From positions 150,446-214,445 of the forward strand of contig DASTDY010000063.1 in assembly GCA_035710125.1 (NCBI GenBank): a stretch of DNA of 64,000 nucleotides, given 5' to 3'. Source of the DNA: Candidatus Saccharimonadales bacterium. GTDB taxonomy: Bacteria > Patescibacteriota > Saccharimonadia > Saccharimonadales > EFPC-124. Under the pieces are notes generated by a model. That model worked only from the letters and a program-made list of their open reading frames with translations. It ran no database searches and was not told the origin of the DNA. The position numbers were made by a program, and so were the translations under genes. Positions 42,962 through 59,591 of the stretch are shown piece by piece (the stretch's first letter is position 1; each line of letters begins with the position of its first letter).

Positions 42962-43393
42962 ATGGAAAACACAGAATCTCTAGTCCGTAATTATCTCAAA
43001 AGGCCCGAAGTCCAGGTAATGCAGCTGGCCACTGTGCGTGATGGCCAGCCTTGGGTGTGTACTGTCCATTTTTGGGCAGACGACAGCATGAGTTTTTATT
43101 GGGTAAGTAATCCTGAAACCCGCCATAGCCAAGAAATCGAAGATGGCTGCAAAGCGGCAATTGCTGTCGTGGTAAACTCGGTCGGTAAACCTATTGGCAT
43201 CCAAGCCGAGGGTGACGCATACTTGGTGGAAGACATGGCCGAACTGCAACGAGGTGCTGCTGGTTGGGCCTCCCGCCATAACCGTTCAACTGATTTGGGC
43301 GTTAAAAGGCTATACAAATTTGCCCCTAGGCTTGTTACCTTGTTTGATACACAAAGCTTCCCGCAGGATCCCCGTAAAGTATGGCATCTGTAA
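42962..43393 (+). CDS. Pyridoxamine 5'-phosphate oxidase-like protein (third paralog)
   Basis: VMQLATVRDGQPWVCTVHFWADDSMSFYWVSNPETRHSQEI. Confidence 0.55.
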   Translation: MENTESLVRNYLKRPEVQVMQLATVRDGQPWVCTVHFWADDSMSFYWVSNPETRHSQEIEDGCKAAIAVVVNSVGKPIGIQAEGDAYLVEDMAELQRGAAGWASRHNRSTDLGVKRLYKFAPRLVTLFDTQSFPQDPRKVWHL

Positions 43394-44658
43394 AACCAGT
43401 ATTTGCATTGGTGGACTGCAATAATTTTTTTGCCAGCTGCGAGCGGGTATTCCGGCCAGATTTATGGGATAAACCTGTGGCGGTGCTCAGCAACAACGAT
43501 GCCTGTATTGTTGCCCGTAGCAACGAAGTAAAAGAGCTAGGTGTCTATACTGGCCAACCTTACTTTAAGGTGCGTGATGTCTTAGCTGAACATAAGGTGC
43601 ATTTATTTTCGGCCAATTTTGGTATGTACGGCGATTTTTCGCAGCGTGTAGTGCAAATGCTGCAACAAGAATCACCAGATATAGAGGTGTATTCGGTAGA
43701 TGAATCATTTTTAGAAATCTCGCATCTACCTATTAAGGACTACGAAGAGTGGGGAAGGCGGCTGAGCCAAAAAGTATACCAATGGACCGGCCTGCCGGTT
43801 TCGGTGGGTATTGGCTCTACTAAAACACTCGCTAAGGCGGCAGCTGACTATACAAAAAAGCATCCAGAAAAAAACGGAGCATTTTCTGTTGTTAATAACG
43901 AAGAAGAGCGCATTAGGCTACTAAAATGGCTGCCGACTAGCCATGTTTGGGGTGTGGGCTGGCGTACCACGCCAAAACTTGCGGCTCGGGGTGTAACTAC
44001 AGCTTACGATTTAACGCAGGTGAGTTTACAGTGGGCTCAAGAGCAGCTAACTATTAGGGGTGTGCGCACAATCCGCGAATTACTTGGCGAGAGTTGTTAT
44101 GGCCTTGACACCTCACCCGAACCACAGCAATCTATTGCCCGCACCAGGACGTTTGGCCACACTGTTCGCGACTATTACCAGCTAGAAGGCGCAATTGCTA
44201 CCTTTGCCGCCAAAGCCGCTGCTAAATTGCGCCAGCAAAAAGAGGTAGCGGGCGAGGTAATGACATTTTTGCGCAGTCCAAAACACGCCGAGGTACGCGC
44301 TGGCGGTTCGCATATAGTTAAGCTTCAGCAGCCAAGTGCAGATACGGGTGCGATTATTACAGCCGCATTACAGGCGCTGAACCAGGTGTACGACCCTGAG
44401 TTTGGCTATAACAGGGCAGGCGTGGTGCTTTTGAACCTTGGAACTTCCCAGCAATTAGCGCTTAGCACAGACGTGCAAAAGCTTAGCCGTAACGCTACTT
44501 TAATGAAAACGGTAGATGGTATAAACCGGCGTTTTGGCACACGCCTTGTCCGCCACGCAAGTGAGCATGTGGAGGCAACAAACTGGCATAGCAAAAGGGA
44601 GTTGTGCAGCCCTGCATATACCACAAATTGGCGGCAATTACGTACGGTGCATGCGTAG
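43381..44658 (+). CDS. umuC: Y-family DNA polymerase UmuC-like
   Basis: FALVDCNNFFASCERVFRPDL..KPVAVLSNNDACIVARS, SVDESFLE, GIGSTKTLAK. Overlaps the preceding gene by 13 nt. Confidence 0.8.
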   Translation: MASVKPVFALVDCNNFFASCERVFRPDLWDKPVAVLSNNDACIVARSNEVKELGVYTGQPYFKVRDVLAEHKVHLFSANFGMYGDFSQRVVQMLQQESPDIEVYSVDESFLEISHLPIKDYEEWGRRLSQKVYQWTGLPVSVGIGSTKTLAKAAADYTKKHPEKNGAFSVVNNEEERIRLLKWLPTSHVWGVGWRTTPKLAARGVTTAYDLTQVSLQWAQEQLTIRGVRTIRELLGESCYGLDTSPEPQQSIARTRTFGHTVRDYYQLEGAIATFAAKAAAKLRQQKEVAGEVMTFLRSPKHAEVRAGGSHIVKLQQPSADTGAIITAALQALNQVYDPEFGYNRAGVVLLNLGTSQQLALSTDVQKLSRNATLMKTVDGINRRFGTRLVRHASEHVEATNWHSKRELCSPAYTTNWRQLRTVHA

Positions 44659-44695
44659 GTGTGTCTGGCGCGGACACACTCGTTAGATTTTTTGC

Positions 44696-45154
44696 TTAGA
44701 TTTTGATGTTAGGGATTCGACCGCTTCGGGCCAAGCGGCAAAGCACTACTCTATCCCTACAACCGAAGAGCCTGATGAGCTTGGTGATTTGATCGTCGAC
44801 ATACCGACGCTTCAGATTCAAATCCAGGGCGATTTTTCTGGCCCGGTCACCCTTGCCAAGTGCCGTCAGGATCGTCATCTGCTCTTCGTCTAGGACGATG
44901 TGATTAAAGCTTTTGACCTCGCTCAAGGGGTTAAGCGGATCCCCAGGTTCGGCGGAATCCAGGTCGTCGAAGACAAGCCCACGGTCTTCTGCATTTTTAA
45001 CGGCTGCGGCAGTACAGTCGGCGTCGAGTTCGGAGTAGACGTTAGCCAGACGGTAGTTGACCTGCCTTTCGCTGAGACCTGTCTCTTTGGCGACCTCTCT
45101 TGCGGTAAGACCTCGCGCTTTAAGCCTGAGACACAGAAATTCTTCGTCGTTCAC
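44696..45154 (-). CDS. Protein with two LuxR/GerE-type HTH modules, G+C-rich
   Basis: EEFLCLRLKARGLTAREVAKETGLSERQVNYRLANVYSEL and EEQMTILTALGKGDRARKIALDLNLKRRYVDDQITKLIRLFG. Confidence 0.5.
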   Translation of the reverse strand: MNDEEFLCLRLKARGLTAREVAKETGLSERQVNYRLANVYSELDADCTAAAVKNAEDRGLVFDDLDSAEPGDPLNPLSEVKSFNHIVLDEEQMTILTALGKGDRARKIALDLNLKRRYVDDQITKLIRLFGCRDRVVLCRLARSGRIPNIKI

Positions 45155-45233
45155 TGTACAGCTTTCTCCAAGATGTACGTCCGCGCCAGAATTTACACTA
45201 AAGGATTATGCGGCAAAGAGCAAACTTGATCGG

Positions 45234-45261
45234 TTGACAAAAAAATGTGTAACATTATACT
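45234..45261 (+). promoter_or_regulatory. Near-consensus sigma-70-type promoter for 45298..45897
   Basis: TTGACA, 16 nt, then TATACT in an AT-rich divergent region. AAAGGAG RBS at 45287-45293. Confidence 0.5.
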
Positions 45262-45297
45262 ATAGCCGATCACTGTTTTTGCTGCAAAAGGAGTAGT

Positions 45298-45897
45298 GTG
45301 ACCGCTCACCCCAAAACGCTGGTCGTGCAGTACATCGCTCAGACGACACGCAGAAACCCGACGCCCGATCCGCAGTTTCTGGCAGAAAAGAACGCCACCA
45401 CGTGCCGCCTGCAGCTAATGGTGGACGGCACTGGGTATGACGGTGTCGGCGTTGCTCTGCGTAAGAAGCAGGCTGAGGTCATTGCATACGGCGACATTCT
45501 GCGCCAGATGGTGGCGAACGGGTTGTGTGTGCCGGATGCCGCAGAGGCGCTAGCCTATGTGGATGACCTGGTTGCCCAGGAGCAGGCGGCCGTAGAGGCG
45601 GCTAGCCAGCAAGAAACCGTGGGCGAAAGTCGTCTACGAAAGGCGTTCGCAACCCTGTGCAGGCCGTACGGCGATAACCACGTCTGGCATCTTCAGTTGT
45701 TCGCGCAAACCGCTGGTATCAGGGAGGCGGTGTACACCCAGCATCAGACTGGCGAGTCGACCTGGGAGGTCAACGTGAGCATTGTTCTCCCTGGCGCGCC
45801 GCTCAGGTCGGATACGTACACCGGTAGCAAGAAGTCGTGCAGGCAAAGGGCTGCAAGCGACCTGATCGCTCGCATCAAGGAGCACATGCAGCAGTGA
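45298..45897 (+). CDS. Hypothetical protein with two dsRNA-binding-domain-like modules, G+C-rich
   Basis: GTG start. Helix-2-like motifs GVGVALRKKQAEVIAYGDILRQM and GSKKSCRQRAASDLIARI (compare GxGxSKKxAExxAAxxAL), each preceded by helix/beta-like segments. No catalytic domain. Confidence 0.45.
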   Translation: MTAHPKTLVVQYIAQTTRRNPTPDPQFLAEKNATTCRLQLMVDGTGYDGVGVALRKKQAEVIAYGDILRQMVANGLCVPDAAEALAYVDDLVAQEQAAVEAASQQETVGESRLRKAFATLCRPYGDNHVWHLQLFAQTAGIREAVYTQHQTGESTWEVNVSIVLPGAPLRSDTYTGSKKSCRQRAASDLIARIKEHMQQ

Positions 45898-45999: not shown

Positions 46000-46028
46000 T
46001 TTACTCAACCCTTAATTTGTGCTATAGT
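46000..46028 (+). promoter_or_regulatory. Putative promoter of tRNA-Glu
   Basis: TTTACT, 17 nt (ending in TGC), then TATAGT, 13 nt upstream of the tRNA 5' end. Confidence 0.45.
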
Positions 46029-46041
46029 TTTTATCTGTTAC

Positions 46042-46116
46042 GGCCTCATCGTCTAACGGTTAGGACACCAGGTTTTCATCCTGGCAATCGGAGTTCGATT
46101 CTCCGTGAGGTCACCA
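46042..46116 (+). tRNA. tRNA-Glu (anticodon UUC)
   Basis: Acceptor GGCCUCA/UGAGGUC, anticodon arm CCAGG-UUUUCAU-CCUGG, T-arm CGGAG-UUCGAUU-CUCCG, encoded CCA. Confidence 0.85.
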
Positions 46117-47788
46117 TAAGATCATTTTCTGCTTTCAGCACCTGAAAGACCGGAGACACCCCTGTAAAAAGGGGTGTTTTTGGTGTTCCAGGTTTTATTT
46201 CTTCGTATGTTGGCAAACGGTCAAATAACGCACCGAAAAGCTGGGCTTTTTTGACTGGATCAATCTGTTTTATGAGTAGTTCATCGAGGTGTTCCAGGAA
46301 ATATCGTACCTTAGCGAGAATCTTGTTAATATCGGTTGGTTTTTCTGCCTCTTTCTTAGCTTTAAGTGCTTGCAAGTCTTTGATTTGTTGTTCAATACGA
46401 ATGATATCCTCCTCAATGAATTTGATGACCGTGATGGACTCTACGGCGCGCAGTTTGGCGACATTAGCTCGCACATCCTTTTGTAGCTCGGCCATGCGTT
46501 CGTCAACGCCCTGGATTTCTTGTATGTAGCTTTGGTTATGCATATTCCACTCCGCGGCAATCGCGTTCATGACTGTATCGATCCGTTCATTCGAGACAGT
46601 TAAGTTACTAATAAATGCTCTCACAGTGTCCTCCAATTCCTGTTTTGGTACGCGATAATAGTGGCCGTGGTTGCTGCAATGATAGGCTGGATAGCGTTTG
46701 CCGGATTTGCCACGTGAGGCGCTGCCAAGCATCGGCCGTTTACATTCGGAACATAGTACGAAGCGGCGATATGGAAAATCTTCGTTTCGTGAACCTTTGT
46801 TGATCAAATGCTCGGCCGGACGTTTAGTAAGGATCTGTATGTCGCCGTCTTTATCCTCAATGATAAACTTCTTGCCTTGCATGGCCCGGTTCCATAAGTC
46901 GATAGAAACGAGACCCTTAAAGGCACATCGTACAGGCTTTCCCTCTGTCCACTTCTCAGCATTCACGCCCGCATAAATCGGGTTAGCAATGAGTTTTTGC
47001 ATGGCTTTTACAGTTAAGGGATTGCCGCCGGTTTTAGAGATAATCTTAGTGCGGTCATTCTTGTCGCGCTTGTACTGTACGCGAGTGCGGAAGCCAAGTT
47101 CGTTTATTTTATCGACAATCTCGGAGTCGTGCATGGCACCTTTGGCGCGTAATTCTAGCATCATGCGGAGGTATTTGGCTTCGGTAGGGTGCGGTTTGAG
47201 AACGCAACGCTTGCCATTTTTAGTCTCCACCTTCTCGCTCGTCAGGCCATAGGGTGCGCGGCGCATCCAGTAGCCCATTCGAGCGTAGCGTATTTCTGCT
47301 CCGATCATACGACTCATGATGTCGCGTAGCTCGTCCTTTGCCCGTTCGGCTTCTAGAATCTCAGTCTTTTTGCTGGGCGAAAATTTGCTCCAATCGTACT
47401 CAACGCCGAGGTGCTCCAGCGTATTAATTTCCTCGCCGCTGATAATCCCATAGACATCAATCAAGCCAACATTACATTCTTTAAGTTGGTTTTTGAGCGG
47501 GCTGTAAAAGTCAGAGCCGCCGCGAGTGAAGCGGTCAATAGATTTGATAATAAATAAATCGATTTCGTTTTTTGGGTCTTTGCAGTAATCGATAGCTGGC
47601 TGCATCGGCTGCTGTTCTTGAGAGGCCGACTCCAGAAATACAAAGTACTGTTTAACGGTTATGCCGCGTGAAGCCGCGAAACGCTCAATTTGCTCGCGCT
47701 GTGCTTCGGGTGAATCTCCGTCCGTACCTTGCTTGGTGGTCGATACACGGATAGCGGCAACGGCGTTCTTGTTAGCATGCGGTGACAT
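46076..47788 (-). CDS. Large serine recombinase (integrase) 1
   Basis: Resolvase domain AAIRVSTTKQ...SIDRFTRG, a recombinase domain, zinc ribbon CSECKRP...YHCSNHGHYY, and a long coiled coil. The last 13 codons (MVTSRRIELRLPG) are antisense to tRNA-Glu. Confidence 0.85.
   Translation of the reverse strand: MSPHANKNAVAAIRVSTTKQGTDGDSPEAQREQIERFAASRGITVKQYFVFLESASQEQQPMQPAIDYCKDPKNEIDLFIIKSIDRFTRGGSDFYSPLKNQLKECNVGLIDVYGIISGEEINTLEHLGVEYDWSKFSPSKKTEILEAERAKDELRDIMSRMIGAEIRYARMGYWMRRAPYGLTSEKVETKNGKRCVLKPHPTEAKYLRMMLELRAKGAMHDSEIVDKINELGFRTRVQYKRDKNDRTKIISKTGGNPLTVKAMQKLIANPIYAGVNAEKWTEGKPVRCAFKGLVSIDLWNRAMQGKKFIIEDKDGDIQILTKRPAEHLINKGSRNEDFPYRRFVLCSECKRPMLGSASRGKSGKRYPAYHCSNHGHYYRVPKQELEDTVRAFISNLTVSNERIDTVMNAIAAEWNMHNQSYIQEIQGVDERMAELQKDVRANVAKLRAVESITVIKFIEEDIIRIEQQIKDLQALKAKKEAEKPTDINKILAKVRYFLEHLDELLIKQIDPVKKAQLFGALFDRLPTYEEIKPGTPKTPLFTGVSPVFQVLKAENDLMVTSRRIELRLPG
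46156..46181 (+). terminator. Rho-independent terminator of tRNA-Glu, lying inside the recombinase ORF on the other strand
   Basis: ACACCCCT-GTAAAA-AGGGGTGT followed by TTTTT. Confidence 0.7.
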
Positions 47789-47791
47789 GAT

Positions 47792-47926
47792 TTAAGCTTT
47801 CGTTTCTTCCTCGATGATAATTTGCAAGATCAAATCAGCTATCAGTTCAACACGCCGTTCTTCTGGCATAGTCACCGTTTCCGGCAGCTTTATTTCTTTA
47901 TTTTGTGAGCCTTTTGTTCTTGCCAT
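47792..47926 (-). CDS. Small ORF (44 aa) directly upstream of recombinase 1; possible accessory/directionality factor
   Basis: Below the ORF-track size cutoff. Manual translation: MARTKGSQNKEIKLPETVTMPEERRVELIADLILQIIIEEETKA. GAGGG RBS. The stop is 3 nt before the recombinase ATG. Confidence 0.3.
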   Translation of the reverse strand: MARTKGSQNKEIKLPETVTMPEERRVELIADLILQIIIEEETKA

Positions 47927-47939
47927 TTTACCCTCGTAG

Positions 47940-47958
47940 CACTTACAATATGTAATAC
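47940..47958. promoter_or_regulatory. Operator-like inverted repeat, copy 1 (CACTTACA-ATA-TGTAATA)
   Basis: Shares 15 fixed positions with 56945..56963. Lies 14 nt upstream of the small ORF/recombinase operon. Confidence 0.5.
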
Positions 47959-47966
47959 CCTAACTA

Positions 47967-47981
47967 TAACAAATTGTAATA
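47967..47981. promoter_or_regulatory. Operator-like inverted repeat, copy 2 (TAACA-AAT-TGTAATA)
   Basis: One mismatch to the TTACA-N3-TGTAATA core. Lies 24 nt from copy 1. Confidence 0.4.
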
Positions 47982-48158
47982 TCTATGACAATAGAAAATG
48001 TAAACATCGCTGTTAAACCTTTAACCTTAATCTCACCCCTCATATATTCTCTTTATATTTTTCCTCTCTTAATATATAAATATATAGAAGATAAGACACA
48101 TAGAATCATTAGAGCATTTAATTGTAAGACAGCAAAAGAAGCTTATAGGTAAATAGAT

Positions 48159-48977
48159 ATGGATAAGACTGAATCTAAAACTAGAAGAAAATTAAATGCA
48201 GAACAATTAGAAGTCTTAGAGCTTCTATATAAATTTAGATTTGGTAGTAATGATCTAATTGCTCAGTATTTTGGTAAGAAGAATCGGTCGTTTGTGTTTA
48301 AGCGGCTATCGATACTGTTAGAGCAAGAACTTATTGGTAAGCGTTTTAATAGTAGCTATCGTATTAAAGGTAAGCCAGCTGCATATTACTTGTTGCCTGC
48401 CGGTGCTCGCAAGCTCCAAGAAACCCGTACCGCAGAAGACGAAGCAGTAAACATCAAAAGCATCTACAAAGACAGAACCGTATCAGAAACATTCATCCAG
48501 CATTCATTGAATATCTTTACTGCGTATAACCAGCTAAAGGCACGATACGGAGATGAGCTAGCATTCTTCACTAAAACTAATCTAACAAGCTACGAGCACT
48601 TTCCTAAGCCATTACCCGATGCGTTTGTATCACTTGAAATCAAGAACACTACCCATTACTTCTTCATAGAGATAGTGGAAGATACCCAACCATTCTTTAC
48701 AGTGGTAAGAAGCATCAAGAAATATCTCGATCACAAAGAAAGTGGCGAATGGGCTATAACCGAAACGGACTATCCGGCTGTCTTATTTATTTGTGAGTCA
48801 ACGAGTCTGCAAAAGAGACTACAGAAGCAAATCACCAAGATGCTGGATACATCATGGGTAGATGATCTAAACTTTGCTACAACCACTAAATCCGAACTTA
48901 CGTCTCTTGTCGAAAATGATGCCATTTGGCAGAAAGTAACCGAGCCAGACGATAAGCTCCCTTTACAAGACACCTAG
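48159..48977 (+). CDS. Replication-relaxation family protein
   Basis: LNAEQLEVLELLYKFRFGSNDLIAQYF...FVFKRLSILLEQELIGKRF...KPAAYYLLPAGARKL follows the winged-helix N-terminal pattern of the Replic_Relax family. Confidence 0.5.
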   Translation: MDKTESKTRRKLNAEQLEVLELLYKFRFGSNDLIAQYFGKKNRSFVFKRLSILLEQELIGKRFNSSYRIKGKPAAYYLLPAGARKLQETRTAEDEAVNIKSIYKDRTVSETFIQHSLNIFTAYNQLKARYGDELAFFTKTNLTSYEHFPKPLPDAFVSLEIKNTTHYFFIEIVEDTQPFFTVVRSIKKYLDHKESGEWAITETDYPAVLFICESTSLQKRLQKQITKMLDTSWVDDLNFATTTKSELTSLVENDAIWQKVTEPDDKLPLQDT

Positions 48978-49128
48978 AACTTGTCACTTGCTTGCAAGTG
49001 GGAAGTCCCTGTTTGTATATTACAAACAGGTTAACTCAGCCCTACTAAGCTACAATTAACCTTGGGAGAGCGAGTCCTTACTCCAACTAGGCTTTGTCGA
49101 GCGTCCTGCTGTTACCTCGACACAGACG

Positions 49129-49491
49129 CTATTTCGGCTGCCAAAGTTGCACTAAGTTGCCTTCTGGATCTACCAACGAGGCAAAGATACCATTTGGATA
49201 CTCTTCAGGATCCCGCTTTACTTCAATGCCGCCATCTGTTAATTGAACAATCATTGCGTCCAAATCGTCCACCCGAAAATTAAGTGCCCATGTTTTGCCG
49301 CTACCGTTAAAATGCTCACTGTCGGCACTCATAAAAGCAAAAACTGTAGGCCCCTGCTTTGGTACCCATTCGGGATCTTCGTACGATGCTGGTGGTAGAG
49401 GTACCCCTAGGTACTTCTGATACCACTCACCTAACATTTCTGGATTCTGTGCGACGATAAATACACCGCCTATACCGTTGATTTTCTGCAT
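49129..49491 (-). CDS. VOC (glyoxalase/bleomycin-resistance) family protein
   Basis: INGIGGVFIVAQNPEMLGEWYQKYLGV ... FASLVDPEGNLVQLWQP. Confidence 0.65.
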   Translation of the reverse strand: MQKINGIGGVFIVAQNPEMLGEWYQKYLGVPLPPASYEDPEWVPKQGPTVFAFMSADSEHFNGSGKTWALNFRVDDLDAMIVQLTDGGIEVKRDPEEYPNGIFASLVDPEGNLVQLWQPK

Positions 49492-49659
49492 ATGTTTATT
49501 GTAGCAGTAGACAACGAGATCGGAGTGGAGAGGTCTATTCCAACTTTTTGACGAAGATATATAAATCTAATGTCTATAAAACCACCATCTTTGAGACACC
49601 TAAAAAGAGAATCTTCATCAGTCCCGCCGCTATGTCTCTAGATCAGTTATACTAGGCGT

Positions 49660-50277
49660 ATGAGTGATCTATATTTCATCGGTGGAGCTCCGCGAACCGG
49701 AAAAACTACCGTGGTCCAAAAACTTCTAAAACAAAAACCAATTCTAGCAGCTTCAACAGATGCTATTCGCGCGGTTGCCCTGGGACTTGTTTCCAAAGAG
49801 ACAGACCCTCATTTGCATCGTGTTGAGCGCGGCCCTTTTGGGTCAGAGGAACACCTGTCCAATTTGAAGAGTAACCAGGAGCTACTTTTGAAGCAAGAGC
49901 TTGCGTCAGCTGAAGCAACTTGGAAGTCGGTCTTAGATTTTGTTGGCTACTACCAAAAGGACGCTAAAGATGCACTCGTGGAGGGTGTTGCAGTATTGCC
50001 AAGTGAGCTTGCAAAAGTAAATTTTGACTTCAAGGCAGTTTTTATCGTCAACCTAACAGATCAAACGGAAGAGATTCTGAGCCACGCACGAGAAAATTCG
50101 TTCGACTGGCTATCAAAGTATGATGATGAAACGATTCGCCAATACGCCACCTTTAATTATCGGTGGAATCAATACTACGCCGAAGAGGCTGTAAAGTACG
50201 GGTTCCATGTTGTCGAGATTGAACCTAAGAACTTTCATCAGAGTGTAGATACGGCTGTTGAGCTTCTAAGCGCTTGA
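49660..50277 (+). CDS. P-loop kinase-like protein
   Basis: Walker A GGAPRTGKTT at the N-terminus. Size and layout of small-molecule/nucleotide kinases. Confidence 0.5.
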   Translation: MSDLYFIGGAPRTGKTTVVQKLLKQKPILAASTDAIRAVALGLVSKETDPHLHRVERGPFGSEEHLSNLKSNQELLLKQELASAEATWKSVLDFVGYYQKDAKDALVEGVAVLPSELAKVNFDFKAVFIVNLTDQTEEILSHARENSFDWLSKYDDETIRQYATFNYRWNQYYAEEAVKYGFHVVEIEPKNFHQSVDTAVELLSA

Positions 50278-50648
50278 TTCCTGATTTCACAACCTTGTCA
50301 ACGGCCTTAGATAACATAAGTTAAATCATGCCCCACAGTTTAAGCGCAAAAGCTTCGACAGCGTATTGTCTCAAAAACCTTCATTTTAGACACGCTATTA
50401 TTGCGTTTTGAAACATGATTTATACCTAGTTTTATGCATATCGTAGTCTTTTGTATCTGTAATAATCTCATGGCTGAAGACTTTGCCAACACGTGCAACA
50501 CAGACGGCAGCTTTAAAACCCAGTCAGCAACCACGTTCACTCCAAGGACGACCCCCTAAGGACTTTATCTACAAGGTTTCCAGAGCGAGATAGGTTAGTA
50601 CGGTAGTATAATAAGATAAAGCAGCTGAGAGAGCAGCGAAAGGAAAAT

Positions 50649-51068
50649 ATGGCACTAGAAGTAAATTGGCTAGCAGTAGCAATAGCCACTATTGTTGGAA
50701 CGGCGATTGCTGGAATATGGTATCAGGAGCCAGTCTTTGGTAAAGCATGGCGAAAGGCCACTGGGGTAACACCGAAACAGTCAAAGCAGGCAGGCAATGC
50801 TCCGATGGTTGTTCTGTTGATTGCAAACTCCGTAACTGCAGTCGGCTTGGCAAGCTTAGTCTATCTAACTTCCCACTTCTTTGAAAATTATACAGTTGGG
50901 TTTGCTCTGCTGAATGGAGCAGTCGCAGGACTGGCGCTATCGGCAACCACTCTTGTCGTGCATAATGGCTTTGAGCTAAAACCTAAGAGGTTAACGCTGA
51001 TCAATGTTGCTTATCAAATGGTAATCTTTTTAAGCATGACGCTTGTCATTGGCTTGTTTGGCGCGTGA
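50649..51068 (+). CDS. DUF1761 family membrane protein
   Basis: NWLAVAIATIVGTAIAGIWYQEPVFGKAWRKATG plus three further TM helices. RBS AAAGGA. Confidence 0.55.
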   Translation: MALEVNWLAVAIATIVGTAIAGIWYQEPVFGKAWRKATGVTPKQSKQAGNAPMVVLLIANSVTAVGLASLVYLTSHFFENYTVGFALLNGAVAGLALSATTLVVHNGFELKPKRLTLINVAYQMVIFLSMTLVIGLFGA

Positions 51069-51078
51069 TCAAAATTTA

Positions 51079-51909
51079 ATGCACATTTTCACCACATCCC
51101 AAGGCACCCTTGAATACCGAATAGTCGGTAACGGCAATAAGACGGCTATTATCTTCCCTGGCGGTCACATGGACGCGAGCGTGAACTTAGGTGAAGACTT
51201 TTTTATCAAAAGGGGCTACCAGGTGATAACATTGTCACGACCGGGGTATGGAAAAACCTCACTTGCTACTGGACCTTCACCCGATAGCTTTGCAGATACT
51301 GTTGCTCAGCTGCTCGAAAGTCTTAATATCCATAAGATAGTTGCAGTAGGTATTTCGGCCGGAGGGCGCAGTGCAGTTCGTCTGGCTGCAAAGTACCCTA
51401 GAGTAGTAGAAAAACTAATCCTGCAATGTGCCACAAGTTTTATGCCATGGCCCGATGCCCAGACCCGCCGAGTTGCGCGTATTGCGTTTAATCCCTCCAT
51501 GGAGAAGTTCACTTGGCAGATCATGCGAAGAATACTTAAAGCAAGCCCTCGCGCGGGTCTAAAGATGATGCTGGGCAATATGAGTACGCTTAACCCGGAT
51601 GATGTGATAGATAGCTTAAGTAAGGGACAGACAGATGGCCTGATTAATATTTTCGCCCATCTGCAATCTGGCAAGGGTTTTATGAATGATCTGGCGCAAA
51701 CATCAGGCTCGGCAAAAGATGTGCATGTGCCTACATTGATTATTCATAGCAAGTATGACAAAAGCGTTTCGCTAGAGCATGCAAAGAAGCTTCATTCTGA
51801 AATTGCAGGCTCAAGACTTTTTATAACCACAGCAGAAAGCCATATGATTTGGTTTAGTACCCAGTACGATCAAATTCAGAAGGAAATGGGAGCCTTTTTA
51901 GACTTTTAA
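51079..51909 (+). CDS. Alpha/beta hydrolase
   Basis: Nucleophile elbow VGISAGG, C-terminal HSKYD...H. ATG 51079 preferred over the TTG at 51043. Confidence 0.7.
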   Translation: MHIFTTSQGTLEYRIVGNGNKTAIIFPGGHMDASVNLGEDFFIKRGYQVITLSRPGYGKTSLATGPSPDSFADTVAQLLESLNIHKIVAVGISAGGRSAVRLAAKYPRVVEKLILQCATSFMPWPDAQTRRVARIAFNPSMEKFTWQIMRRILKASPRAGLKMMLGNMSTLNPDDVIDSLSKGQTDGLINIFAHLQSGKGFMNDLAQTSGSAKDVHVPTLIIHSKYDKSVSLEHAKKLHSEIAGSRLFITTAESHMIWFSTQYDQIQKEMGAFLDF

Positions 51910-51948
51910 TAAGGTGCCAATCTCGCATGGATACGATATGTGGGACGT

Positions 51949-52683
51949 TCATAACCCGCTCACCACAAGCAATACTCCCACCCCATGCGCTACAACCGCA
52001 GGCCATAAACCATATCGCATCCGCAGGAAAGCACACACCAACCCTTCGTATAAAGTAAAGATAAGCAATGCTATACCTACATCGGTGGCTATGAAGGCTA
52101 AGAATATATGCGCTGCCGCAAAGGTTAGCGCCGAGAGGAGTGCAGCGAGTAACGGTTTGTACAGCTTTTCGAGATAACCTTGTAGATAGCCCCTGAAAAG
52201 CAACTCCTCCATGAAATTCCCTAGTAAGGTTATGGCAAGTAAAGCTGGGAGTAAGCCTAGCGCTACGCTACCGCCGCGTTCTGCCAGCGGAGTAAACTGG
52301 TAAGCAATAAGGAGCGGTGCGGCAACAGCGCCAGCTCCGAGCAAGCCGTATAGCAGGGTCTTAGGCGTAAATTTGCCCCATTTTAGATAGGACTTCATTT
52401 GTTTGTTGGTTGCCAAAACAAGCACGGCAAAAACCAAAGAAGCTAGTCCTAGTGATACAAGAATAAGCGGATCATTAATAAACCGTATCCACAATACTCC
52501 ATTATGAGTGCCCAATTCCCAGAGGTTATGTACGGTCATTGCATCCCGCATGAGCATAAAGGCTAAAATAAGTAGGAATATTCTAAAAGCCATGGCTTGT
52601 TTACCTTTGTAGAGAAAATAGAGGGCCCCAAGCAATAGCAGGCCAGGGAGTATGTGAAGGCTGTAGTCGATAAGCGTAAGCAT
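51949..52683 (-). CDS. CPBP family intramembrane glutamic endopeptidase (CAAX protease / Abi-type)
   Basis: EELLFRGYL and FAAAH motifs in a polytopic membrane protein. A TATAAT box lies in the short upstream gap. Confidence 0.75.
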   Translation of the reverse strand: MLTLIDYSLHILPGLLLLGALYFLYKGKQAMAFRIFLLILAFMLMRDAMTVHNLWELGTHNGVLWIRFINDPLILVSLGLASLVFAVLVLATNKQMKSYLKWGKFTPKTLLYGLLGAGAVAAPLLIAYQFTPLAERGGSVALGLLPALLAITLLGNFMEELLFRGYLQGYLEKLYKPLLAALLSALTFAAAHIFLAFIATDVGIALLIFTLYEGLVCAFLRMRYGLWPAVVAHGVGVLLVVSGL

Positions 52684-52732
52684 TTGTTGCTATTATAGCA
52701 ATCTTTGGGCGTAGCAAGTGGCTAAGGAGAAC

Positions 52733-55375
52733 TTAAGATACCTTACCCTTCTTAGGAAATAAAGGTTTTGCCTGCTTATCTTTTGTTTGGGTTCTCTTTG
52801 CAGGAGTCTTTCGTTTTGCCGCAGCCTTGGCCTTAGGCTCTTTCGCCTTTGTGGCTGGCTCACTCTTTTTAGAGGGGTCAGGAATTTCCTTTGGTCTTAT
52901 ATATTCTTTGCCGTAGTTCTTCTGCGAAGCAGCAACAGCTCGTTTAGCAACGTTCTCGTCGCCCGATCCCTCTAGTACAATTGTCTCGCCCGAAAATGCT
53001 TCCTGTGCATCACCAGCCGCAATACGCATATAGAAGTTATACTTTGGTAAGTGTGTGATCTCACCCTCTTCAATATAACCTTTGAACTGATGGAGCATTA
53101 ATTCCTCGTCGGCTGGATTCCCGGTACGGAAACAAACAATCGTGCCTGCGTTGTCTAGGATATTTTCGGTGAGCTCGCGGTCTTGCTGTGAAGTAGATTG
53201 TTCGGCCATTGTTAGGAATAGCTTATACTTGCGTGATTCTGACAATATTTGCATAAACAGCGGTGATACAAAATTCTGGAATTCATCCACATACAGGTAG
53301 AACGGACGCCGGTCTTCTTCTTTTGTATTGATGCGGCGGTAGGCCGCAAGCTGCAATCTCGTAAGAATAGCAGTGCCGAGCACGGCCGAAGTATCTTCAC
53401 CAATCGAACCCTTAGCTAGGTTACAGATAAGAATCTTGCCATTTAGTATTTCATCGAAGTCGATGGTTGATTTCTCTTGTTCCAAGATGCGTCGTGTCAC
53501 TACGGAACGTTGGAAACGCCCAATCTTGGTAGTGACGCCATCCATGGCTTTATATTTCTGGTAGTTACCTGCCAGGCCAAACTCGTTGATCCAAAAGTCT
53601 TTAATATCTTCATCGTCTAATGTGGCGACAACTTTCTTACGGAATTCTGGATTGTTAAGTAGCTTGCGGATAGTGAAAAGGGTTGCACCTTCGACGGCAA
53701 AAGCAGTGTGTACGGCATTTCGCAAAACGTGCTCAATGCGATGTCCGCCCGAATCATCCTCGGAGAAAATCTTGCGGAAAACGGAGACGATCGACTCCGT
53801 AACGAAGTCCTTCGCAAGTAGTAGCTCATCGCCAGTAAGACCCTCTGGCAATTCAAGTAAGTTCAAGCCAATAGGATTGCTGATGTCTGCCGGATTAAAG
53901 TAAATGACATCCTTCATCCGCTCCTCTGGAATATACTTGAGCAGCTTTGCCGCCATGTCTCCGTGCGGATCGACTACGGCAACGCCCTTGCCGTTCTGTA
54001 TATCTTGCAGGATTGCATATTGCAGTAGCGTTGTTTTGCCATTACCCGTACCACCGATAATGTACATATGACGTTCACGTTCATCTGTGGTCAGGCCAAT
54101 GTTTGTTGTTTCGCCGTGATGGTTATTGTTACCGAGCACTACGTCAAAAGTACTGTCATCAGTACGATTCTTAAGAAGTGTTGGTGCTGGCAGAGTTCGG
54201 CTATGGGAACGAGTCATACCTTCAGTTGTAATTGCGCCATAGGGGAAATGGTAGATACTGGCAAGCTCAGATGCTGCAAGAATATTAGTACCAAACACAA
54301 AGAATGATGGCATACGACGTTCAAGCTTGAACATGCCCATCTTTTGACCCAGCCAATCGGGATGTAGCCGAGGCATGTGTAATTGTTGTGTGCTCACTGA
54401 GTTGAGGGGAGCAAGTGAACTGGTGATACCCGAAGATAAATCATAAAGTCGCGAGTTACTTGCGGCTGAGACCAATATACGGATATCTGTTCTAAAAAGT
54501 GGTTGGTTTAACTTCGCCAGCACACCTGCAAATACTTCTTGTTGTGCCTGGGTAAGCTCGGGTTCATCGCGGCGTATGAATAACGAAACGACAAGCAGTA
54601 CCAATAACAAGGATGCAGTAGCCTTTAGATCATTGGTAAAAAGGCCGTACACAGCAGTGATTAGCCATACCCATATGGGACGGCTTAATATAAAGTATCG
54701 TAACTTACGGTCTAGGACGGCATAGCCAGTACCCTCAATCTTGGCACGCAGCCGGTTAGTCCAGTATGAATGGTGCGGTGCGAGCACGAGCTGCATAGTC
54801 ACCTTCTCATCTGGCTTTAGCTTAGTCATTGCTCCTGTAATAAATGTAACTGGGTCACTTTGATCGAGTGCTTCGTGGGCTTGCAAAGGATAGGCGTAAT
54901 GATAGGCTTGTTTGACTTCAAAGACACGGCTGTGGCTACTACGAGCTTCCCCTGTTGCCGATTCCAATATTCTGAACTGGGCATCGGGCAAGTACGCTGC
55001 TAATTGCCGCTGAAGCGTTTCGGCATCGCCTGGATGTATATGCATAAGGTAGCGAATACCTTCTTTGCGAGTGGCACTAATTTCAAGCGGCGCGACTTCA
55101 TTACGATTGATAAGCTGCCCTATGACCGCGAAAAGCTGCTGCGTAGCAAGCGGTGACTTCTCTATATGCTTAGGCGGTGTGATCTCAAGAATGACGCGTG
55201 GGTGGTTACGCATCTTCCAGAAATTCCACATACCTTTTAGCACGGTATAAGTTGGTTCAAGTATCCAACGGTAAATCAAATACACCACGATGATTAACAA
55301 GGCAACACTAAGAGAACGGTCAAAGAGATTGTGACCCAAGAAATTCAGTGCGTCGTCTAGTGTAAGCATAACCAC
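52733..55375 (-). CDS. Membrane-anchored TraD/VirD4/FtsK-like coupling ATPase
   Basis: TM helix, a ~190-aa domain, two TM helices, then Walker A IIGGTGNGKTT, VVDPHGD, Walker B FYLYVDEFQNF, TMAEQSTSQ. Lys-rich tail. Start is GTG 55375 or ATG 55369. Confidence 0.7.
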   Translation of the reverse strand: MVMLTLDDALNFLGHNLFDRSLSVALLIIVVYLIYRWILEPTYTVLKGMWNFWKMRNHPRVILEITPPKHIEKSPLATQQLFAVIGQLINRNEVAPLEISATRKEGIRYLMHIHPGDAETLQRQLAAYLPDAQFRILESATGEARSSHSRVFEVKQAYHYAYPLQAHEALDQSDPVTFITGAMTKLKPDEKVTMQLVLAPHHSYWTNRLRAKIEGTGYAVLDRKLRYFILSRPIWVWLITAVYGLFTNDLKATASLLLVLLVVSLFIRRDEPELTQAQQEVFAGVLAKLNQPLFRTDIRILVSAASNSRLYDLSSGITSSLAPLNSVSTQQLHMPRLHPDWLGQKMGMFKLERRMPSFFVFGTNILAASELASIYHFPYGAITTEGMTRSHSRTLPAPTLLKNRTDDSTFDVVLGNNNHHGETTNIGLTTDERERHMYIIGGTGNGKTTLLQYAILQDIQNGKGVAVVDPHGDMAAKLLKYIPEERMKDVIYFNPADISNPIGLNLLELPEGLTGDELLLAKDFVTESIVSVFRKIFSEDDSGGHRIEHVLRNAVHTAFAVEGATLFTIRKLLNNPEFRKKVVATLDDEDIKDFWINEFGLAGNYQKYKAMDGVTTKIGRFQRSVVTRRILEQEKSTIDFDEILNGKILICNLAKGSIGEDTSAVLGTAILTRLQLAAYRRINTKEEDRRPFYLYVDEFQNFVSPLFMQILSESRKYKLFLTMAEQSTSQQDRELTENILDNAGTIVCFRTGNPADEELMLHQFKGYIEEGEITHLPKYNFYMRIAAGDAQEAFSGETIVLEGSGDENVAKRAVAASQKNYGKEYIRPKEIPDPSKKSEPATKAKEPKAKAAAKRKTPAKRTQTKDKQAKPLFPKKGKVS

Positions 55376-55432
55376 GTCATAATTCTGTTAATTATACAAA
55401 CTAATATAACTGATGAGCAAACAGAAGGCTAG

Positions 55433-56677
55433 CTACTCAAAGTAGTAAAGGGGTAATATGTATTTCGATCCATCTTGGACTGGGTGTCTATGGTTTGCGC
55501 TAAATCTAGCTAGATATTCGTTGTCTACAAAGTCAATTGCATTCCGAAATATATTACTGCCGCCACGCTCCAGGCCATTAATTGTTTCAGCCATTGATCC
55601 GACTAACTGATTTTGACCTATTGCAAGCACGAGCAGGTGCTCATCTGTGCCTCTTCTAATACTGCGGTTTTGCCGATGTGTGTCATAGTGCGTAAGCAGA
55701 GGATCGGCGCTGTCATGCTTGATATAGCGCCCTGATTCAATAATGAGAACGATACGAGGATCGGGGTTGTAGCCTTTTGCCTGTAGGGATTGATACTTAC
55801 TTTCGCTATTGCGGATGATGAATTTTACATCCCTAAAGCTTAGCTTATGTTTGGCGACTAGTCTCTGAAGCCATTCTGCTAGGTGATCTTTGCTCGTTTG
55901 GCTTGTCGTGAGTTCTTGGGAGAATACTTTCTCAACAAATTTTGTGAAATCTCGTGAATCTAAATCAAAAAATTCTACAAAATCCAAAGCCTTTATGTAA
56001 GAGTCTCGCTGATCTGAAAAAGATTTGCCAGCGATGGGAATAAATACTTTTATTTTATTATCAAACTCCGACGCCCTCAAGAAGTGACTAAGTGTCTCGA
56101 TAAAATATATACCTGCATCCCCGGATCGATCTGCATCTTCTATGACGATGTATATTTGTTTCTGCCTGATATCTTTCTTGGCTAGAACATCTTTAAATAT
56201 GTCCTGAATCTGAAATACGCGTTTAGCCGGGCTTGTAGTGAAGAAATCAGCCAACTTACTAACTATCGCCCCGGATCCCTTGAAAGGTATATTTAACGCA
56301 GCGCCAGCGGCTTTAGTGAGCTTCTTTTTAACATCTCCAGACGTACCGTCCATAATCTTTAACGTTTTTGCAAAATCTTTTGGCGCAACTTGCCGCACAA
56401 AATCCAAAACAAACCCTTCCCATAGATTTGTTCGCTCAGGATACTTCCAAGCATCAAAATGTGCCCATATAACATCATCGTTATCGAGTTTGCTGTGTAC
56501 CTTCTCGAGCAATGTACTTTTACCCATGCCGTAGTTACCTACGATGCCCAAGAGGGATTTATTGGAAATTGTTTCGATTTTGCTCTTTAGGCTATCTACA
56601 TGAACGTCAAAAGAAAAAAGATCCTCTGTTTTATAGTCTTCGACCAAAAACAGGGGGTCATTTATCATTGTTGCCAT
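55433..56677 (-). CDS. KAP-family P-loop NTPase without an obvious transmembrane insert
   Basis: Walker A GNYGMGKST, then FDAWKYPERTNLWEGF (KAP signature), Walker B IYIVIEDADRS. The ATG lies 5 nt after the XRE stop, with AAGGA inside the XRE 3' end. Confidence 0.6.
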   Translation of the reverse strand: MATMINDPLFLVEDYKTEDLFSFDVHVDSLKSKIETISNKSLLGIVGNYGMGKSTLLEKVHSKLDNDDVIWAHFDAWKYPERTNLWEGFVLDFVRQVAPKDFAKTLKIMDGTSGDVKKKLTKAAGAALNIPFKGSGAIVSKLADFFTTSPAKRVFQIQDIFKDVLAKKDIRQKQIYIVIEDADRSGDAGIYFIETLSHFLRASEFDNKIKVFIPIAGKSFSDQRDSYIKALDFVEFFDLDSRDFTKFVEKVFSQELTTSQTSKDHLAEWLQRLVAKHKLSFRDVKFIIRNSESKYQSLQAKGYNPDPRIVLIIESGRYIKHDSADPLLTHYDTHRQNRSIRRGTDEHLLVLAIGQNQLVGSMAETINGLERGGSNIFRNAIDFVDNEYLARFSANHRHPVQDGSKYILPLYYFE

Positions 56678-56682
56678 GTCGC

Positions 56683-56910
56683 CTAAAGTCCTTTGAAAAA
56701 CTCGACTACCGTCACATCAAGACACTTCGCTAACTTCTGTAGAGTAGCAAGTCGCGGCCAGCGTCGGCCTTGTTCGATAAAACCAATAGATAGCGGTGTA
56801 ATATCCGCCTTTGCTGCAAGTTGTTCTTGTGTATAGCCACGCTGACGTCGAACATCTGCGACGCGTTTGCCGAAGGCTTTCAGGTATTTGGATTCTTTTG
56901 GATCATTCAT
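56683..56910 (-). CDS. XRE-family HTH transcriptional regulator
   Basis: FGKRVADVRRQRGYTQEQLAAKADITPLSIGFIEQGRRWPRLATLQKLAKCL. I prefer ATG 56910 (MNDPKES). Confidence 0.8.
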   Translation of the reverse strand: MNDPKESKYLKAFGKRVADVRRQRGYTQEQLAAKADITPLSIGFIEQGRRWPRLATLQKLAKCLDVTVVEFFKGL

Positions 56911-56944
56911 TACTTCCAGAGTAAAGAAATATGACAACTCGTAA

Positions 56945-56963
56945 CACTTACAGATTGTAATAT
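56945..56963. promoter_or_regulatory. Operator-like inverted repeat, copy 3 (CACTTACA-GAT-TGTAATA)
   Basis: Lies in the divergent region between the XRE gene and 57025..57465. Matches copy 1. Confidence 0.5.
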
Positions 56964-56999
56964 GTGGCAAAGTGTCCTATTCTAGAACAGATACAACTA

Positions 57000-57015
57000 T
57001 TACAGAGCGTAATAC
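57000..57015. promoter_or_regulatory. Operator-like inverted repeat, copy 4 (TTACA-GAG-CGTAATA)
   Basis: One mismatch to the core. Lies 52 nt from copy 3. Confidence 0.4.
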
Positions 57016-57024
57016 AGATAAAAT

Positions 57025-57465
57025 ATGCACGAACTGAAAATTTTATATCATTCACCGAGAGTTAGCTTGTCTCGCGACTTAGCCGAGCAGATATGCGAAA
57101 GTAGCATGCAGAGTAAGGTGGCTATCGTGACGAGCAGGCCAATAGTACTACTTTCTGCTACAAGAAAACAGTGGCTAAAACTAATACGTCGCGCACAGCG
57201 CGAGCGTTCAAGTACGTTGAATGCCTTAAAGATTGCCAGCTTGACTCAGCAAATAGCCTGGATGCAATCGTTACGCTTTACCGCGACAGCGCCGGACGAT
57301 CTATTGGAAGCTGATGTGACCTTCGCAACTGCCGAAGATTCCGTGCATATACCGCCGGTGTGCAGAACGATTTATGTGACTTATGGATTTGAAAAAGAAA
57401 AGCTGCACATGCTCACGAGTTGGATGCCGAAGGGTGGACTGGTGGTGATGTATGGACAGAAGTAG
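57025..57465 (+). CDS. Hypothetical protein (146 aa)
   Basis: No motif recognised. Overlaps the RadC-like gene by 14 nt. Confidence 0.45.
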   Translation: MHELKILYHSPRVSLSRDLAEQICESSMQSKVAIVTSRPIVLLSATRKQWLKLIRRAQRERSSTLNALKIASLTQQIAWMQSLRFTATAPDDLLEADVTFATAEDSVHIPPVCRTIYVTYGFEKEKLHMLTSWMPKGGLVVMYGQK

Positions 57466-57835
57466 GCCCCTACTTACTACCGAAGCTGCACTGGCGCATG
57501 TCATGTTTATTCGCAACAAGCGGCAGGAATATTTTGTGTGCCTTTCGCTGGATAGTGGCCGCAGATTGATTGCACGGCGCACTGTAACGATCGGCTTATT
57601 GGATATGTCACTGGTACATCCGCGTGAAGTGTTTGCAGGGCCGCTTAAAGATCGAGCTGCTACGGTCATCATTGCTCACAATCATCCTTCGGGCATTGCG
57701 GAGCCAAGTAGACAGGATATTAAAGCAACGCAGCAACTCATCGCCGCAGGTCAGCTGCTCGGTATACCGCTTTCCGATCATATTATCATTACCAAAGATC
57801 GACATTACAGCTTCAGAGAGAGCGGCCTCATCTAG
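57452..57835 (+). CDS. RadC-like JAB/MPN domain protein
   Basis: HPREVFAGPLKDRAATVIIAHNHPSGIAEPSRQDIKATQQL (JAMM motif HxHPSG..PSxxD). Lacks the N-terminal HhH part of full RadC. Confidence 0.8.
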   Translation: MDRSRPLLTTEAALAHVMFIRNKRQEYFVCLSLDSGRRLIARRTVTIGLLDMSLVHPREVFAGPLKDRAATVIIAHNHPSGIAEPSRQDIKATQQLIAAGQLLGIPLSDHIIITKDRHYSFRESGLI

Positions 57836-57888
57836 TAGTAAAACGATGTAAAACATCGCATGATAGCTCTGTTAAATAAGGAGATATC

Positions 57889-59310: not shown

Positions 59311-59311
59311 C

Positions 59312-59512
59312 CTACGACTCACGTTCCTTCTGGAATGCTTCGTACAATTCGTCCAGTGCGTTAGGATCAGTAAGAGCTAACCGGCGAGACGCTGCTTTGA
59401 GATATCTAAGCATCTCTTCTGCAAACTCGCGGTTGGCATTTTCCGGATGGAATGATTTTAGGTATCTCAGCATTCCCTGTATATCTTCTTCTGTGATTTC
59501 GTAGCCACTCAT
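59312..59512 (-). CDS. Small hypothetical protein with internal MLRYLK duplication
   Basis: 66 aa with AAGGA RBS. Convergent with recombinase 2 and divergent from the OLD-family gene. Confidence 0.5.
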   Translation of the reverse strand: MSGYEITEEDIQGMLRYLKSFHPENANREFAEEMLRYLKAASRRLALTDPNALDELYEAFQKERES

Positions 59513-59591
59513 AATTCTTCCTTAGTATAGCACCGCTATATTGCTATTAGCTCCCATAGATGTCAATAAGGACATTCCTGCTACAATCGAT

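Follow-up and report, generated by a model that had tools for sequence, protein, structure and literature searches.

A 64,000-nucleotide (nt) stretch of DNA from a Candidatus Saccharimonadales bacterium, a member of the candidate phyla radiation (assembly GCA_035710125.1, contig DASTDY010000063.1, positions 150,446 to 214,445 of the forward strand; hereafter, the window), carries at positions 46118-63905 what is very probably an integrative element inserted at the end of a tRNA gene by a serine recombinase whose own gene contains the attachment site of the element (attP). In the proposed mechanism, a large serine recombinase would have inserted this element, which is probably also mobilizable, at the extreme 3' end of a tRNA-Glu(UUC) gene, with the crossover inside the terminal ...TCACCA (nt 71-76). 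Its attP would lie within the recombinase gene, with the P' arm at codons ~551-557, the core at Met558-Val559, and the P arm in the next ten or so codons up to a Trp-Asn pair (TGGAAC). In the excised circle the gene would be continuous and encode an enzyme of 591 amino acids (aa) with a conserved 32-residue tail. Integration would shift this tail to the right-hand junction, attR (63801-63905), and the integrated gene would instead take its last 11 codons from antisense sequence of the T and acceptor arms of the tRNA and end at a TGA stop opposite the anticodon loop, giving a protein of 570 aa. The tRNA-Glu gene would stay intact with its CCA; its own terminator would be displaced to 63922-63958, and it would gain a hairpin and T-run carried in integrase codons 537-545. 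The features involved are the following.

46000-46028, plus strand: promoter-like site 5' of the tRNA-Glu gene, TTTACT-17-TATAGT with an extended -10 TG (consensus scan, pattern match only).
46042-46116, plus strand: host tRNA-Glu(UUC) gene, anticodon ttc, intact, CCA encoded (ARAGORN); putative B arm of attB and attL.
46076-47788, minus strand: large serine recombinase, integrated form, 570 aa (open reading frame (ORF) list, Pfam, homologues).
46111-46117: putative attL core TCACCAT, formed by tRNA nt 71-76 plus one base, an exact repeat of 63899-63905.
46118-63905: whole putative integrated element, 17,788 bp, GC 0.441, bounded by both cores.
46118-46138, minus strand: putative inner P' arm, integrase codons 551-557, e.g. 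GAA AAx TCT CTT, with excess synonymous identity (z up to ~4).
46156-46181, plus strand (tRNA sense): hairpin ACACCCCTGTAAAAAGGGGTGT at 46156-46177, 40 nt past the 3' end of the tRNA, with TTTT up to 46181.
63801-63905, minus strand: integrase 3' end in detached form, with P arm and tail, MVSLRGKNWNTLQVSLERMSQQLEELNILEKPHR and stop (tblastn, tail hidden Markov model (HMM), ORF list).
63899-63905: putative attR core TCACCAT, an exact repeat of 46111-46117.
63922-63958, plus strand: hairpin with a 15-bp stem, then a T-run, in host DNA next to attR (-20.7 kcal/mol on folding, z -5.3).

A previous sequence-only reading of the window had placed a tRNA-Glu gene at 46042-46116 on the plus strand and a minus-strand 570-aa recombinase gene that stays open until 46076, running into the tRNA; ARAGORN and the ORF list, respectively, confirmed both. 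The promoter attributed to the tRNA found a counterpart at 46000-46028, on pattern alone. The integrase ORF and the tRNA-Glu gene overlap by 41 nt, which correspond to the antisense of the tRNA 3' half, and the TGA stop of the integrase is the antisense of U35-C36-A37 of the anticodon loop. According to the ORF list, the protein ends in ...LMVTSRRIELRLPG (...KAENDLMVTSRRIELRLPG), with residues 1-559 being native and residues 560-570 (TSRRIELRLPG) corresponding to tRNA-antisense codons. Thus the read-through held, whereas the foreign part, formerly extended to the last ~45 codons encoded by hairpin and tRNA, is restricted to the last 11. A switch in composition at the junction is also present, although modest (GC 0.493 for positions 1-43000 vs 0.441 for 46118-63899), and it was dropped as a boundary marker in favor of sequence features, which locate the boundary far better.

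The proposal that the attachment junction lies within the 3' end of the integrase gene was borne out by a second core, by a detached tail at 63801-63905 and by the tails of homologues, and its exact place could be narrowed to the last bases of the tRNA, 46111-46117. The plus strand of the window contains TCACCAT at 46111 and 63899, plus an unrelated copy at 13963. Adjoining attR on the minus strand is a detached ORF of 34 codons that begins MVSLRGKNWNTLQ... and has its start within the TCACCAT heptamer. This tail was the single match in a tblastn search of the window with the tail of homologue P0021 (E 3e-4), and a tail HMM built without the window sequence (leave-one-out) detected it with an E value of 2.4e-8, compared to 0.76 for the next-best peptide of the window. 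It lies beside the second core copy on the correct strand and in frame with the integrase, and in the excised circle it would join integrase codon 557. No tRNA fragment was found at attR, either by ARAGORN or in the junction sequence, TCACCAT alone being repeated.

Reconstruction from these ends yields an attP of the form ...CCCCGCAGGC-TCACCAT-AAGATCATTTTC..., with 5'-GTGTTCCAGTTTTTACCCCGCAGGCTCACCATAAGATCATTTTCTGCTTTCAGC-3' as the predicted circle junction and 5'-GATTCTCCGTGAGGTCACCATGACATTATTTCAAATCAGAGAAGTTCC-3' as the predicted empty site, attB. In the circle form the ORF would run on as ...ENDLMV-SLRGKNWNTLQ... to give 591 aa (residues 1-559 plus SLRGKNWNTLQVSLERMSQQLEELNILEKPHR), a size that fits the length class of the homologues with a Trp-Asn (W-N) tail (585-602 aa); upon integration, the last 32 residues would go out and 11 tRNA-antisense codons would come in. 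In the reconstructed empty site, the hairpin at 63922-63958 is located 16 nt 3' of tRNA-Glu, and because this is the spacing at which a tRNA terminator belongs, it is probably the original tRNA-Glu terminator, now 17.8 kb away from its tRNA. As read from these junctions, the anatomy of the element and the swap of the integrase end at the tRNA-Glu 3' end are highly likely.

To place this arrangement in context, the family was surveyed at the protein and locus level. A protein search gave more than 100 homologues with 58-94% identity, most of them exactly 570 aa long, and the endings of the best 120 were classed as tRNA antisense in 99 cases (such as ...MVTPRGIEPLLPG and ...PAGFEPAIFWMRTR) and as incomplete or other in 12; the remaining 9 diverge directly after 'MV' into a common tail with an invariant Trp-Asn, as in MVTQTSQMWNTLYPSLIILGEQLEKLGIGEEELGDADL. 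A single-protein scan of a genome collection returned two loci only, while at least 484 confirmed integrase loci were found within the first 600 pattern matches of one metagenome collection. A metagenome scan with the family alignment provided 80 loci for examination, the ORF end being visible in ~70; in ~65 of these, the integrase ORF enters a tRNA gene on the opposite strand, always from the CCA end. The target tRNAs are Glu-UUC (27, window included), Glu-CUC (12), Gln (11), Leu (5), Arg (4), Phe (3) and Val (3), so the overlap recurs across six tRNA types with proteins that are 52-94% identical.

Detached tails were also detected by the tail HMM, 5' of the integrase and on the same strand, in five further elements, located at tRNA-Arg (L079), tRNA-Glu (L037, L047 and L026) and tRNA-Val (L068). 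All of these tails start in a block of 6-9 bp that is repeated at the tRNA junction (ATGGTAC, TGGTGACC, TGGTGACCC, TGGTGA and ATGGTGGGT). The block common to all six elements, window included, reads TGGTGA or TGGTAC on the integrase strand, with no longer end repeat, and is the antisense of tRNA nt 71-76, that is, the last acceptor pairs, the discriminator A and CCA. Judging from these shared ends, the crossover dinucleotide must lie within this block, where five positions are possible. As in the window, a hairpin and T-run are found on the host side of attR in L037, L047 and L026. In terms of sequence, then, an integrase gene split as in myxophage Mx8 is a trait of this serine-integrase family, which is abundant in Saccharibacteria.

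Three additional observations were made on members of the family. In L079, a second detached tail (MVRSVGKRWNTLY...), with its first 10 codons nearly equal to those of the element's own tail, lies at 13527 on the far side of the tRNA-Arg and is perhaps the edge of another insertion at a neighboring site. L004, from a complete 1.32-Mb genome (CP064960.1), has a frameshifted integrase copy adjoining tRNA-Glu at 10001-11728, which looks like a decaying element in a closed candidate-phyla-radiation genome. A subfamily formed by P0079, P0082, P0090 and P0092 ends in ...GDPKGNRTPVAGMKTRCPNR, apparently tRNA antisense in a different frame, and because of this ending the frame relation between integrase and tRNA appears not to be fixed across the family.

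These data bear on two other explanations of the overlap. If the tRNA belonged to the element itself, or if the junction lay farther right, toward 46260, the overlap would be a plain overlap of genes; some mobile elements do carry tRNA genes, and the empty site was not recovered. Nevertheless, the second core, the detached tail and the hairpin at 63899-63958 set the boundary at 46117/46118, the sequence common to the ends of six elements is only 6-9 bp long and always at the tRNA terminus, and 46118-46260 is conserved integrase coding sequence that is present in attP-form genes without a tRNA nearby, all of which makes this explanation very improbable. Still less credible is that the read-through reflects a chance absence of stop codons or an artefact of ORF calling. 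Antisense tRNA is indeed often free of stops, giving peptides such as GIEP and RIEL, but chance would hardly produce the overlap in ~65 of ~70 loci, with six tRNA types and a start at the CCA end in every case. In relation to the flanks, the contig of the closest relative, P0001 (94% identity), stops just past the tRNA and so has no right flank. A 199-aa protein of the left flank has an identical copy only on L005, a 1238-bp contig that ends inside tRNA-Glu; an assembly break of this kind is expected if a sample contains both occupied and empty sites.

Genes of the attP form, those with a contiguous W-N tail, were found in L001, L002, L056, L059, L067, L086 and L090. No free circular form was found among L001, L002, L086 and L090, whose contigs are longer stretches with further genes of element or host. 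L056 lies 38 kb from L008, on the same strand of one 1.2-Mb contig (Ga0207695_10000005), and L067 lies 27 kb from L042, on the same strand of one 74-kb contig (Ga0154997_13). In both pairs, the gene nearer to the tRNA is the one fused to it, and the more distant gene has a W-N tail. In L001 and L090, a module consisting of tail, small nuclease, small ORF and helix-turn-helix gene is present both before and after the integrase gene. The simplest reading of these layouts is that attP-form genes belong to tandem arrays at a single tRNA, the inner integrase reading into the tail of the next element, although such arrays would need recombination of the attP x attL type, which is unusual for serine integrases.

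Comparison of the arms of the attachment (att) sites revealed several conserved positions. In the P' arm, the codon for Leu557 is CTT in 18 of 22 non-redundant integrase genes, and the attP core ATGGTGA encodes Met558-Val559. The 15 distinct P arms have an invariant TGGT at positions 2-5 and an equally invariant TGGAAC, which provides the Trp-Asn codons, at positions 25-30; the Asn is encoded by AAC in 13 of 14 cases, although these genes show about the same usage of AAC and AAT. The tRNA arm contains TCGAAC at positions 20-25, which is the antisense of the universal G53-T54-T55-C56-G57-A58. A motif matching in five of six positions lies 5 bp farther from the center in attP (TGGAAC) than in attB (TCGAAC). 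In the LI integrase, the zinc-ribbon motif is likewise 5 bp farther out in attP than in attB (Rutherford et al.; PMC3783163), a likeness suggestive of a zinc-ribbon domain that would read the T-loop box TCGAAC in attB and its copy TGGAAC in attP. Such a recognition would explain the moves of the family among tRNA species, because the distance from CCA to T loop is constant.

The hairpin at 46156-46181, formerly taken for the canonical terminator of the tRNA, is real but not the tRNA's own: it is borne by the element, encoded by KTPLFTGV within integrase codons 537-545 (KTPLFTGVS), and is also found in attP-form genes with no tRNA nearby. Although absent from the output of a simple terminator scan, it has the layout of an intrinsic terminator, with a G+C-rich stem followed directly by a U-run downstream of a tRNA gene, and the 74 nt 3' of tRNA-Glu fold with -33.2 kcal/mol (z = -5.5 vs shuffles). 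When terminator-like sites were defined as a hairpin of -7 kcal/mol or stronger with a direct T-run, at most 111 nt after the tRNA and on the tRNA-sense strand, they appeared in 39 of 61 non-identical integrated loci, compared to 10.8% after synonymous recoding with the codon usage of each gene and 7.2% when antisense windows elsewhere in these genes are taken. Subfamilies with another peptide at this place have another hairpin, again with the T-run on the tRNA-sense strand, and at least five such solutions were found (L031/L032, L042/L070, L043/L048/L066, L073 and L079).

A scan for synonymous identity over 22 genes less than 85% identical to one another gave a concordant picture, as all 25 top windows of excess identity fall either in residues 532-544, where the hairpin and the AAA behind its T-run are encoded (z 3.4-3.9), or in residues 551-570, which span the P' arm and the overlap with the tRNA (z up to 4.5). 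At the hairpin codons ACA, CCC, GGG and GTG, third positions are identical at 0.72-0.97, where 0.25-0.32 is expected. It is likely that the element-borne hairpin ends tRNA-Glu transcription after integration, in place of the displaced terminator, and it would also be expected to shield the integrase gene from antisense read-through. Conservation for some other reason, whether protein constraint on KTPLFTGV, an outer part of the att site or stabilization of the integrase mRNA, seems unlikely. It could be argued from the good conservation of the peptide motif itself, from a hairpin that forms in the integrase-sense RNA too and from its frequent absence in elements at tRNA-Gln, Val and Phe, but it has to face third-codon positions fixed far beyond expectation, the pairing of different peptides with different hairpins and T-runs in L031, L032, L042, L043, L070, L073 and L079, T-runs on the tRNA-sense strand only, and the loss of the probable native terminator of the tRNA through the insertion.

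The 570-aa enzyme belongs to a remote clade of large serine recombinases. It scores 35.9 bits against the PF00239 Resolvase domain (cutoff 23.3) and stays just under the Pfam cutoffs for PF07508 Recombinase (20.7 vs 21.1) and the PF13408 Zn-ribbon (23.0 vs 25.3). In 50 sequences, R14, S16, T17, Q20, D85, R86 and R89, comprising the Ser nucleophile in its R-x-S-T context and the D-R-x-x-R motif, are invariant, as is the Cys/His cluster C346, C349, H370, C371 and H376. In an AlphaFold model of the attP-form homologue P0021, the catalytic domain is followed by a long helix E, then by a recombinase domain and a beta ribbon, after which come two long inserted helices (398-446 and 450-479). Foldseek searches with this model retrieved complexes of the full-length SPbeta integrase (E 2e-18, ~570 aligned columns) as well as the structure of the LI integrase C-terminal domain with DNA (4kis, E 4e-9), while a search of the PDB by sequence found the TP901-1 catalytic domain only. 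No close relative was found among annotated phages and plasmids, the best being Paenibacillus phage integrases with 24% identity. The 6-9 bp of end identity in six elements agree with the short att sites typical of large serine integrases.

Regarding the role of the exchanged tail, beyond the P arm it stays open for a further 19-45 codons (median 28) in 15 of 15 copies, whereas the other two frames past W-N have a median of 8 codons and reach 18 in only 7% of cases. The copies also keep a pattern, amphipathic and then acidic, and this, together with the longer open frame, argues for selection on the tail peptide. A functional consequence of the tail swap is conceivable on these grounds, if short of likely. 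More tentatively, and with considerable doubt, the swap could constitute a built-in sensor of the integration state, with the 591-aa and 570-aa forms differing in directionality or stability, and with the zinc ribbon reading the ACCA end and the universal T-loop box, of which the invariant Trp-Asn of the tail would be a DNA mimic within attP. If so, the choice between integration and excision would be controlled by the structure of the gene, instead of or besides a separate directionality factor. Against both stands the view that the swap is real but neutral, the att site merely overlapping the end of the gene, the tail being dispensable and both forms behaving alike, which we hold to be a reasonable possibility without favoring it. 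It is consistent with an AlphaFold tail modeled with low confidence and no docking, and with tRNA-derived tails of 2 to 58 extra codons whose length and sequence depend freely on the tRNA targeted, which suggests that the integrated form tolerates anything there; moreover, tail conservation in codons 1-10 is partly explicable as the P arm at the DNA level. The long frame and the amphipathic-acidic pattern in 15 diverged copies speak against neutrality, as does the sole studied precedent, Mx8, where the swapped integrase has altered activity (PMC6070905).

Several points weigh against the integration model and its extensions. Regarding the junctions, the reconstructed attB, attP and right flank of this element match none of 92 fetched loci, its attP junction has no exact match in IMG/VR, and the host right flank is barely visible, as the window stops 95 bp past attR. 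Every attP-form gene sits in a longer contig, none of them in a proven circle, and a mirror copy of TGGAAC sought by eye in the P' and B' arms was not found. The statistics on the hairpin and on synonymous sites use related sequences, so that loci are not independent events, and elements at tRNA-Gln, Val and Phe mostly lack the hairpin and T-run, the built-in terminator thus not being universal. Finally, the AlphaFold tail of P0021 consists of two short helices with a predicted local distance difference test score (pLDDT) below 50.

The gene content of the element includes the following features.

47792-47926, minus strand: 44-aa ORF directly 5' of the integrase, ending 4 nt before its start codon.
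48159-48977, plus strand: Replication-relaxation family protein, divergent from the integrase (PF13814, E 5.5e-13).
52733-55375, minus strand: type IV coupling-protein-like ATPase (TrwB/TraG-D_C; Pfam).
57889-59310, plus strand: second large serine recombinase of 473 aa; clear Pfam matches to Resolvase, Recombinase and Zn-ribbon.
59541-63783, plus strand: Gabija genes GajA (59541-61598) and GajB (61570-63783) (PADLOC E 1.1e-90 and 5.3e-93).

A gene of 44-55 aa occupies the same place as the 44-aa ORF in L001, L002, L086 and L091, and its product is a possible regulator or directionality factor. The Replic_Relax neighbor is present in the same four loci as part of a conserved integrase module. 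The element ORFs scanned yielded no gene for VirB4, pilin or TrbL, while type IV secretion genes are present in relatives such as L001. With an integrase and mobilization genes but no complete mating-pair apparatus, the gene content probably fits an element of the integrative and mobilizable type. In PADLOC, the coupling-protein-like ATPase is matched by the model 'mad8' as well (E 6.6e-21), and its neighbor within 52733-56677 (minus strand) is a KAP-family NTPase with weak matches to defense models; the role of the two may be in transfer or in defense. At the right end of the element, the complete Gabija anti-phage pair represents defense cargo. The closest integrase relative (94%; L091/L092) sits among entirely different cargo, namely an EamA transporter, an aminoglycoside-phosphotransferase-like kinase, a NUDIX hydrolase and a lactate-dehydrogenase-like protein; because the integrase and Replic_Relax module is shared, the cargo is modular.

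The 473-aa recombinase, just 5' of Gabija and unrelated to the 570-aa enzyme, might mark a nested or formerly separate element. It could in principle have integrated the whole element in place of the 570-aa enzyme, since its matches to the Pfam Resolvase, Recombinase and Zn-ribbon domains are the stronger ones. However, it is internal, 4.6 kb from the nearest end, and in elements with other cargo and no second recombinase (e.g. L091) the tRNA junction and detached tail still accompany the 570-aa family, which renders this alternative highly improbable. Outside the element, to the left of the tRNA, a block at 43381-45897 encodes a UmuC/ImpB-type polymerase, a LuxR-type regulator and the 199-aa protein, an orphan; its GC is 0.52, compared to 0.49 in the rest of the host part, and it is possibly another acquired segment.

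With respect to known systems, insertion at tRNA genes is classically the work of tyrosine integrases. In the mycobacteriophages BPs and Brujita, attP lies inside a coding sequence, and integration alters the C-terminus of a phage protein and its behavior; there the altered protein is the repressor and the integrase a tyrosine recombinase, whereas here it is the recombinase itself that is altered. Like the tRNA islands of Islander and TIGER, the present elements insert at the tRNA 3' end with the gene kept functional, have their integrase beside the tRNA and form putative tandem arrays, but those tyrosine-integrase islands carry a copy of the tRNA 3' end and have a displaced fragment at the far end, and neither is found here. 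As the crossover falls in the last six bases, the tRNA needs no restoring, and only its terminator has to be replaced. The integrases of SSV1-type fuselloviruses of Sulfolobus are tyrosine recombinases of archaeal viruses that are inactivated when their gene is cut in two large parts. Integrases of both Mx8 and SSV extend across attP (PMC4383910). Like the SSV1-type gene, the present one contains attP and is divided when the element enters a tRNA gene; the difference is that only its last 32 codons are detached, so that the catalytic and DNA-binding domains stay together. With Mx8 IntP/IntX (and Mx9) it has in common attP inside the integrase ORF, a tRNA locus as target, and a new 3' end and C-terminus; in Mx8, integration gives int a new 3' end and changed activity (PMC6070905). 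The sequence-only reading had invoked this precedent, and the layout proved similar, with the tail at 63801-63905 and in five other elements, but the enzyme family did not, Mx8 IntP being a tyrosine recombinase. Here a large serine recombinase would act with 6-9 bp of end identity and no duplicated tRNA fragment, its two forms being predicted from sequence.

In domain order (catalytic, recombinase, and zinc ribbon with a coiled-coil insert) and in very short crossover identity, the enzyme resembles those of phiC31, Bxb1, A118/LI, TP901-1 and SPbeta (SprA), and with LI it would share the candidate zinc-ribbon motif offset by 5 bp between attP and attB, although its sequence identity to characterized large serine integrases is 24% or less. 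Characterized large serine integrases are known to use protein-coding or intergenic sites and have attP outside the integrase ORF. According to a database paper of 2014, serine-family integrases were not known to target tRNA genes (PMC4383910), and a review of 2017 states that mobilizable elements with serine recombinases insert within protein-coding genes (PMC5704250). A literature search, confined to the searchable library, found no description of this integrase family or of serine integrases at tRNA genes.

What appears to be new is thus a large, apparently undescribed family of serine integrases that targets tRNA ends and combines an Mx8-like split gene with a probable terminator inside its coding sequence. 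The last ~130 nt of the integrase gene appear to serve four functions at once, namely encoding protein, providing both arms of attP, supplying a replacement terminator to the tRNA and determining the choice of C-terminus. The two natural forms offer a direct test of whether the C-terminal peptide influences the directionality of serine integrases, which is their main practical limit as tools for genome engineering. For the host group, these elements would bring conjugation genes and defense systems, here Gabija, into Saccharibacteria, a group with tiny genomes in which gene flow is little known.

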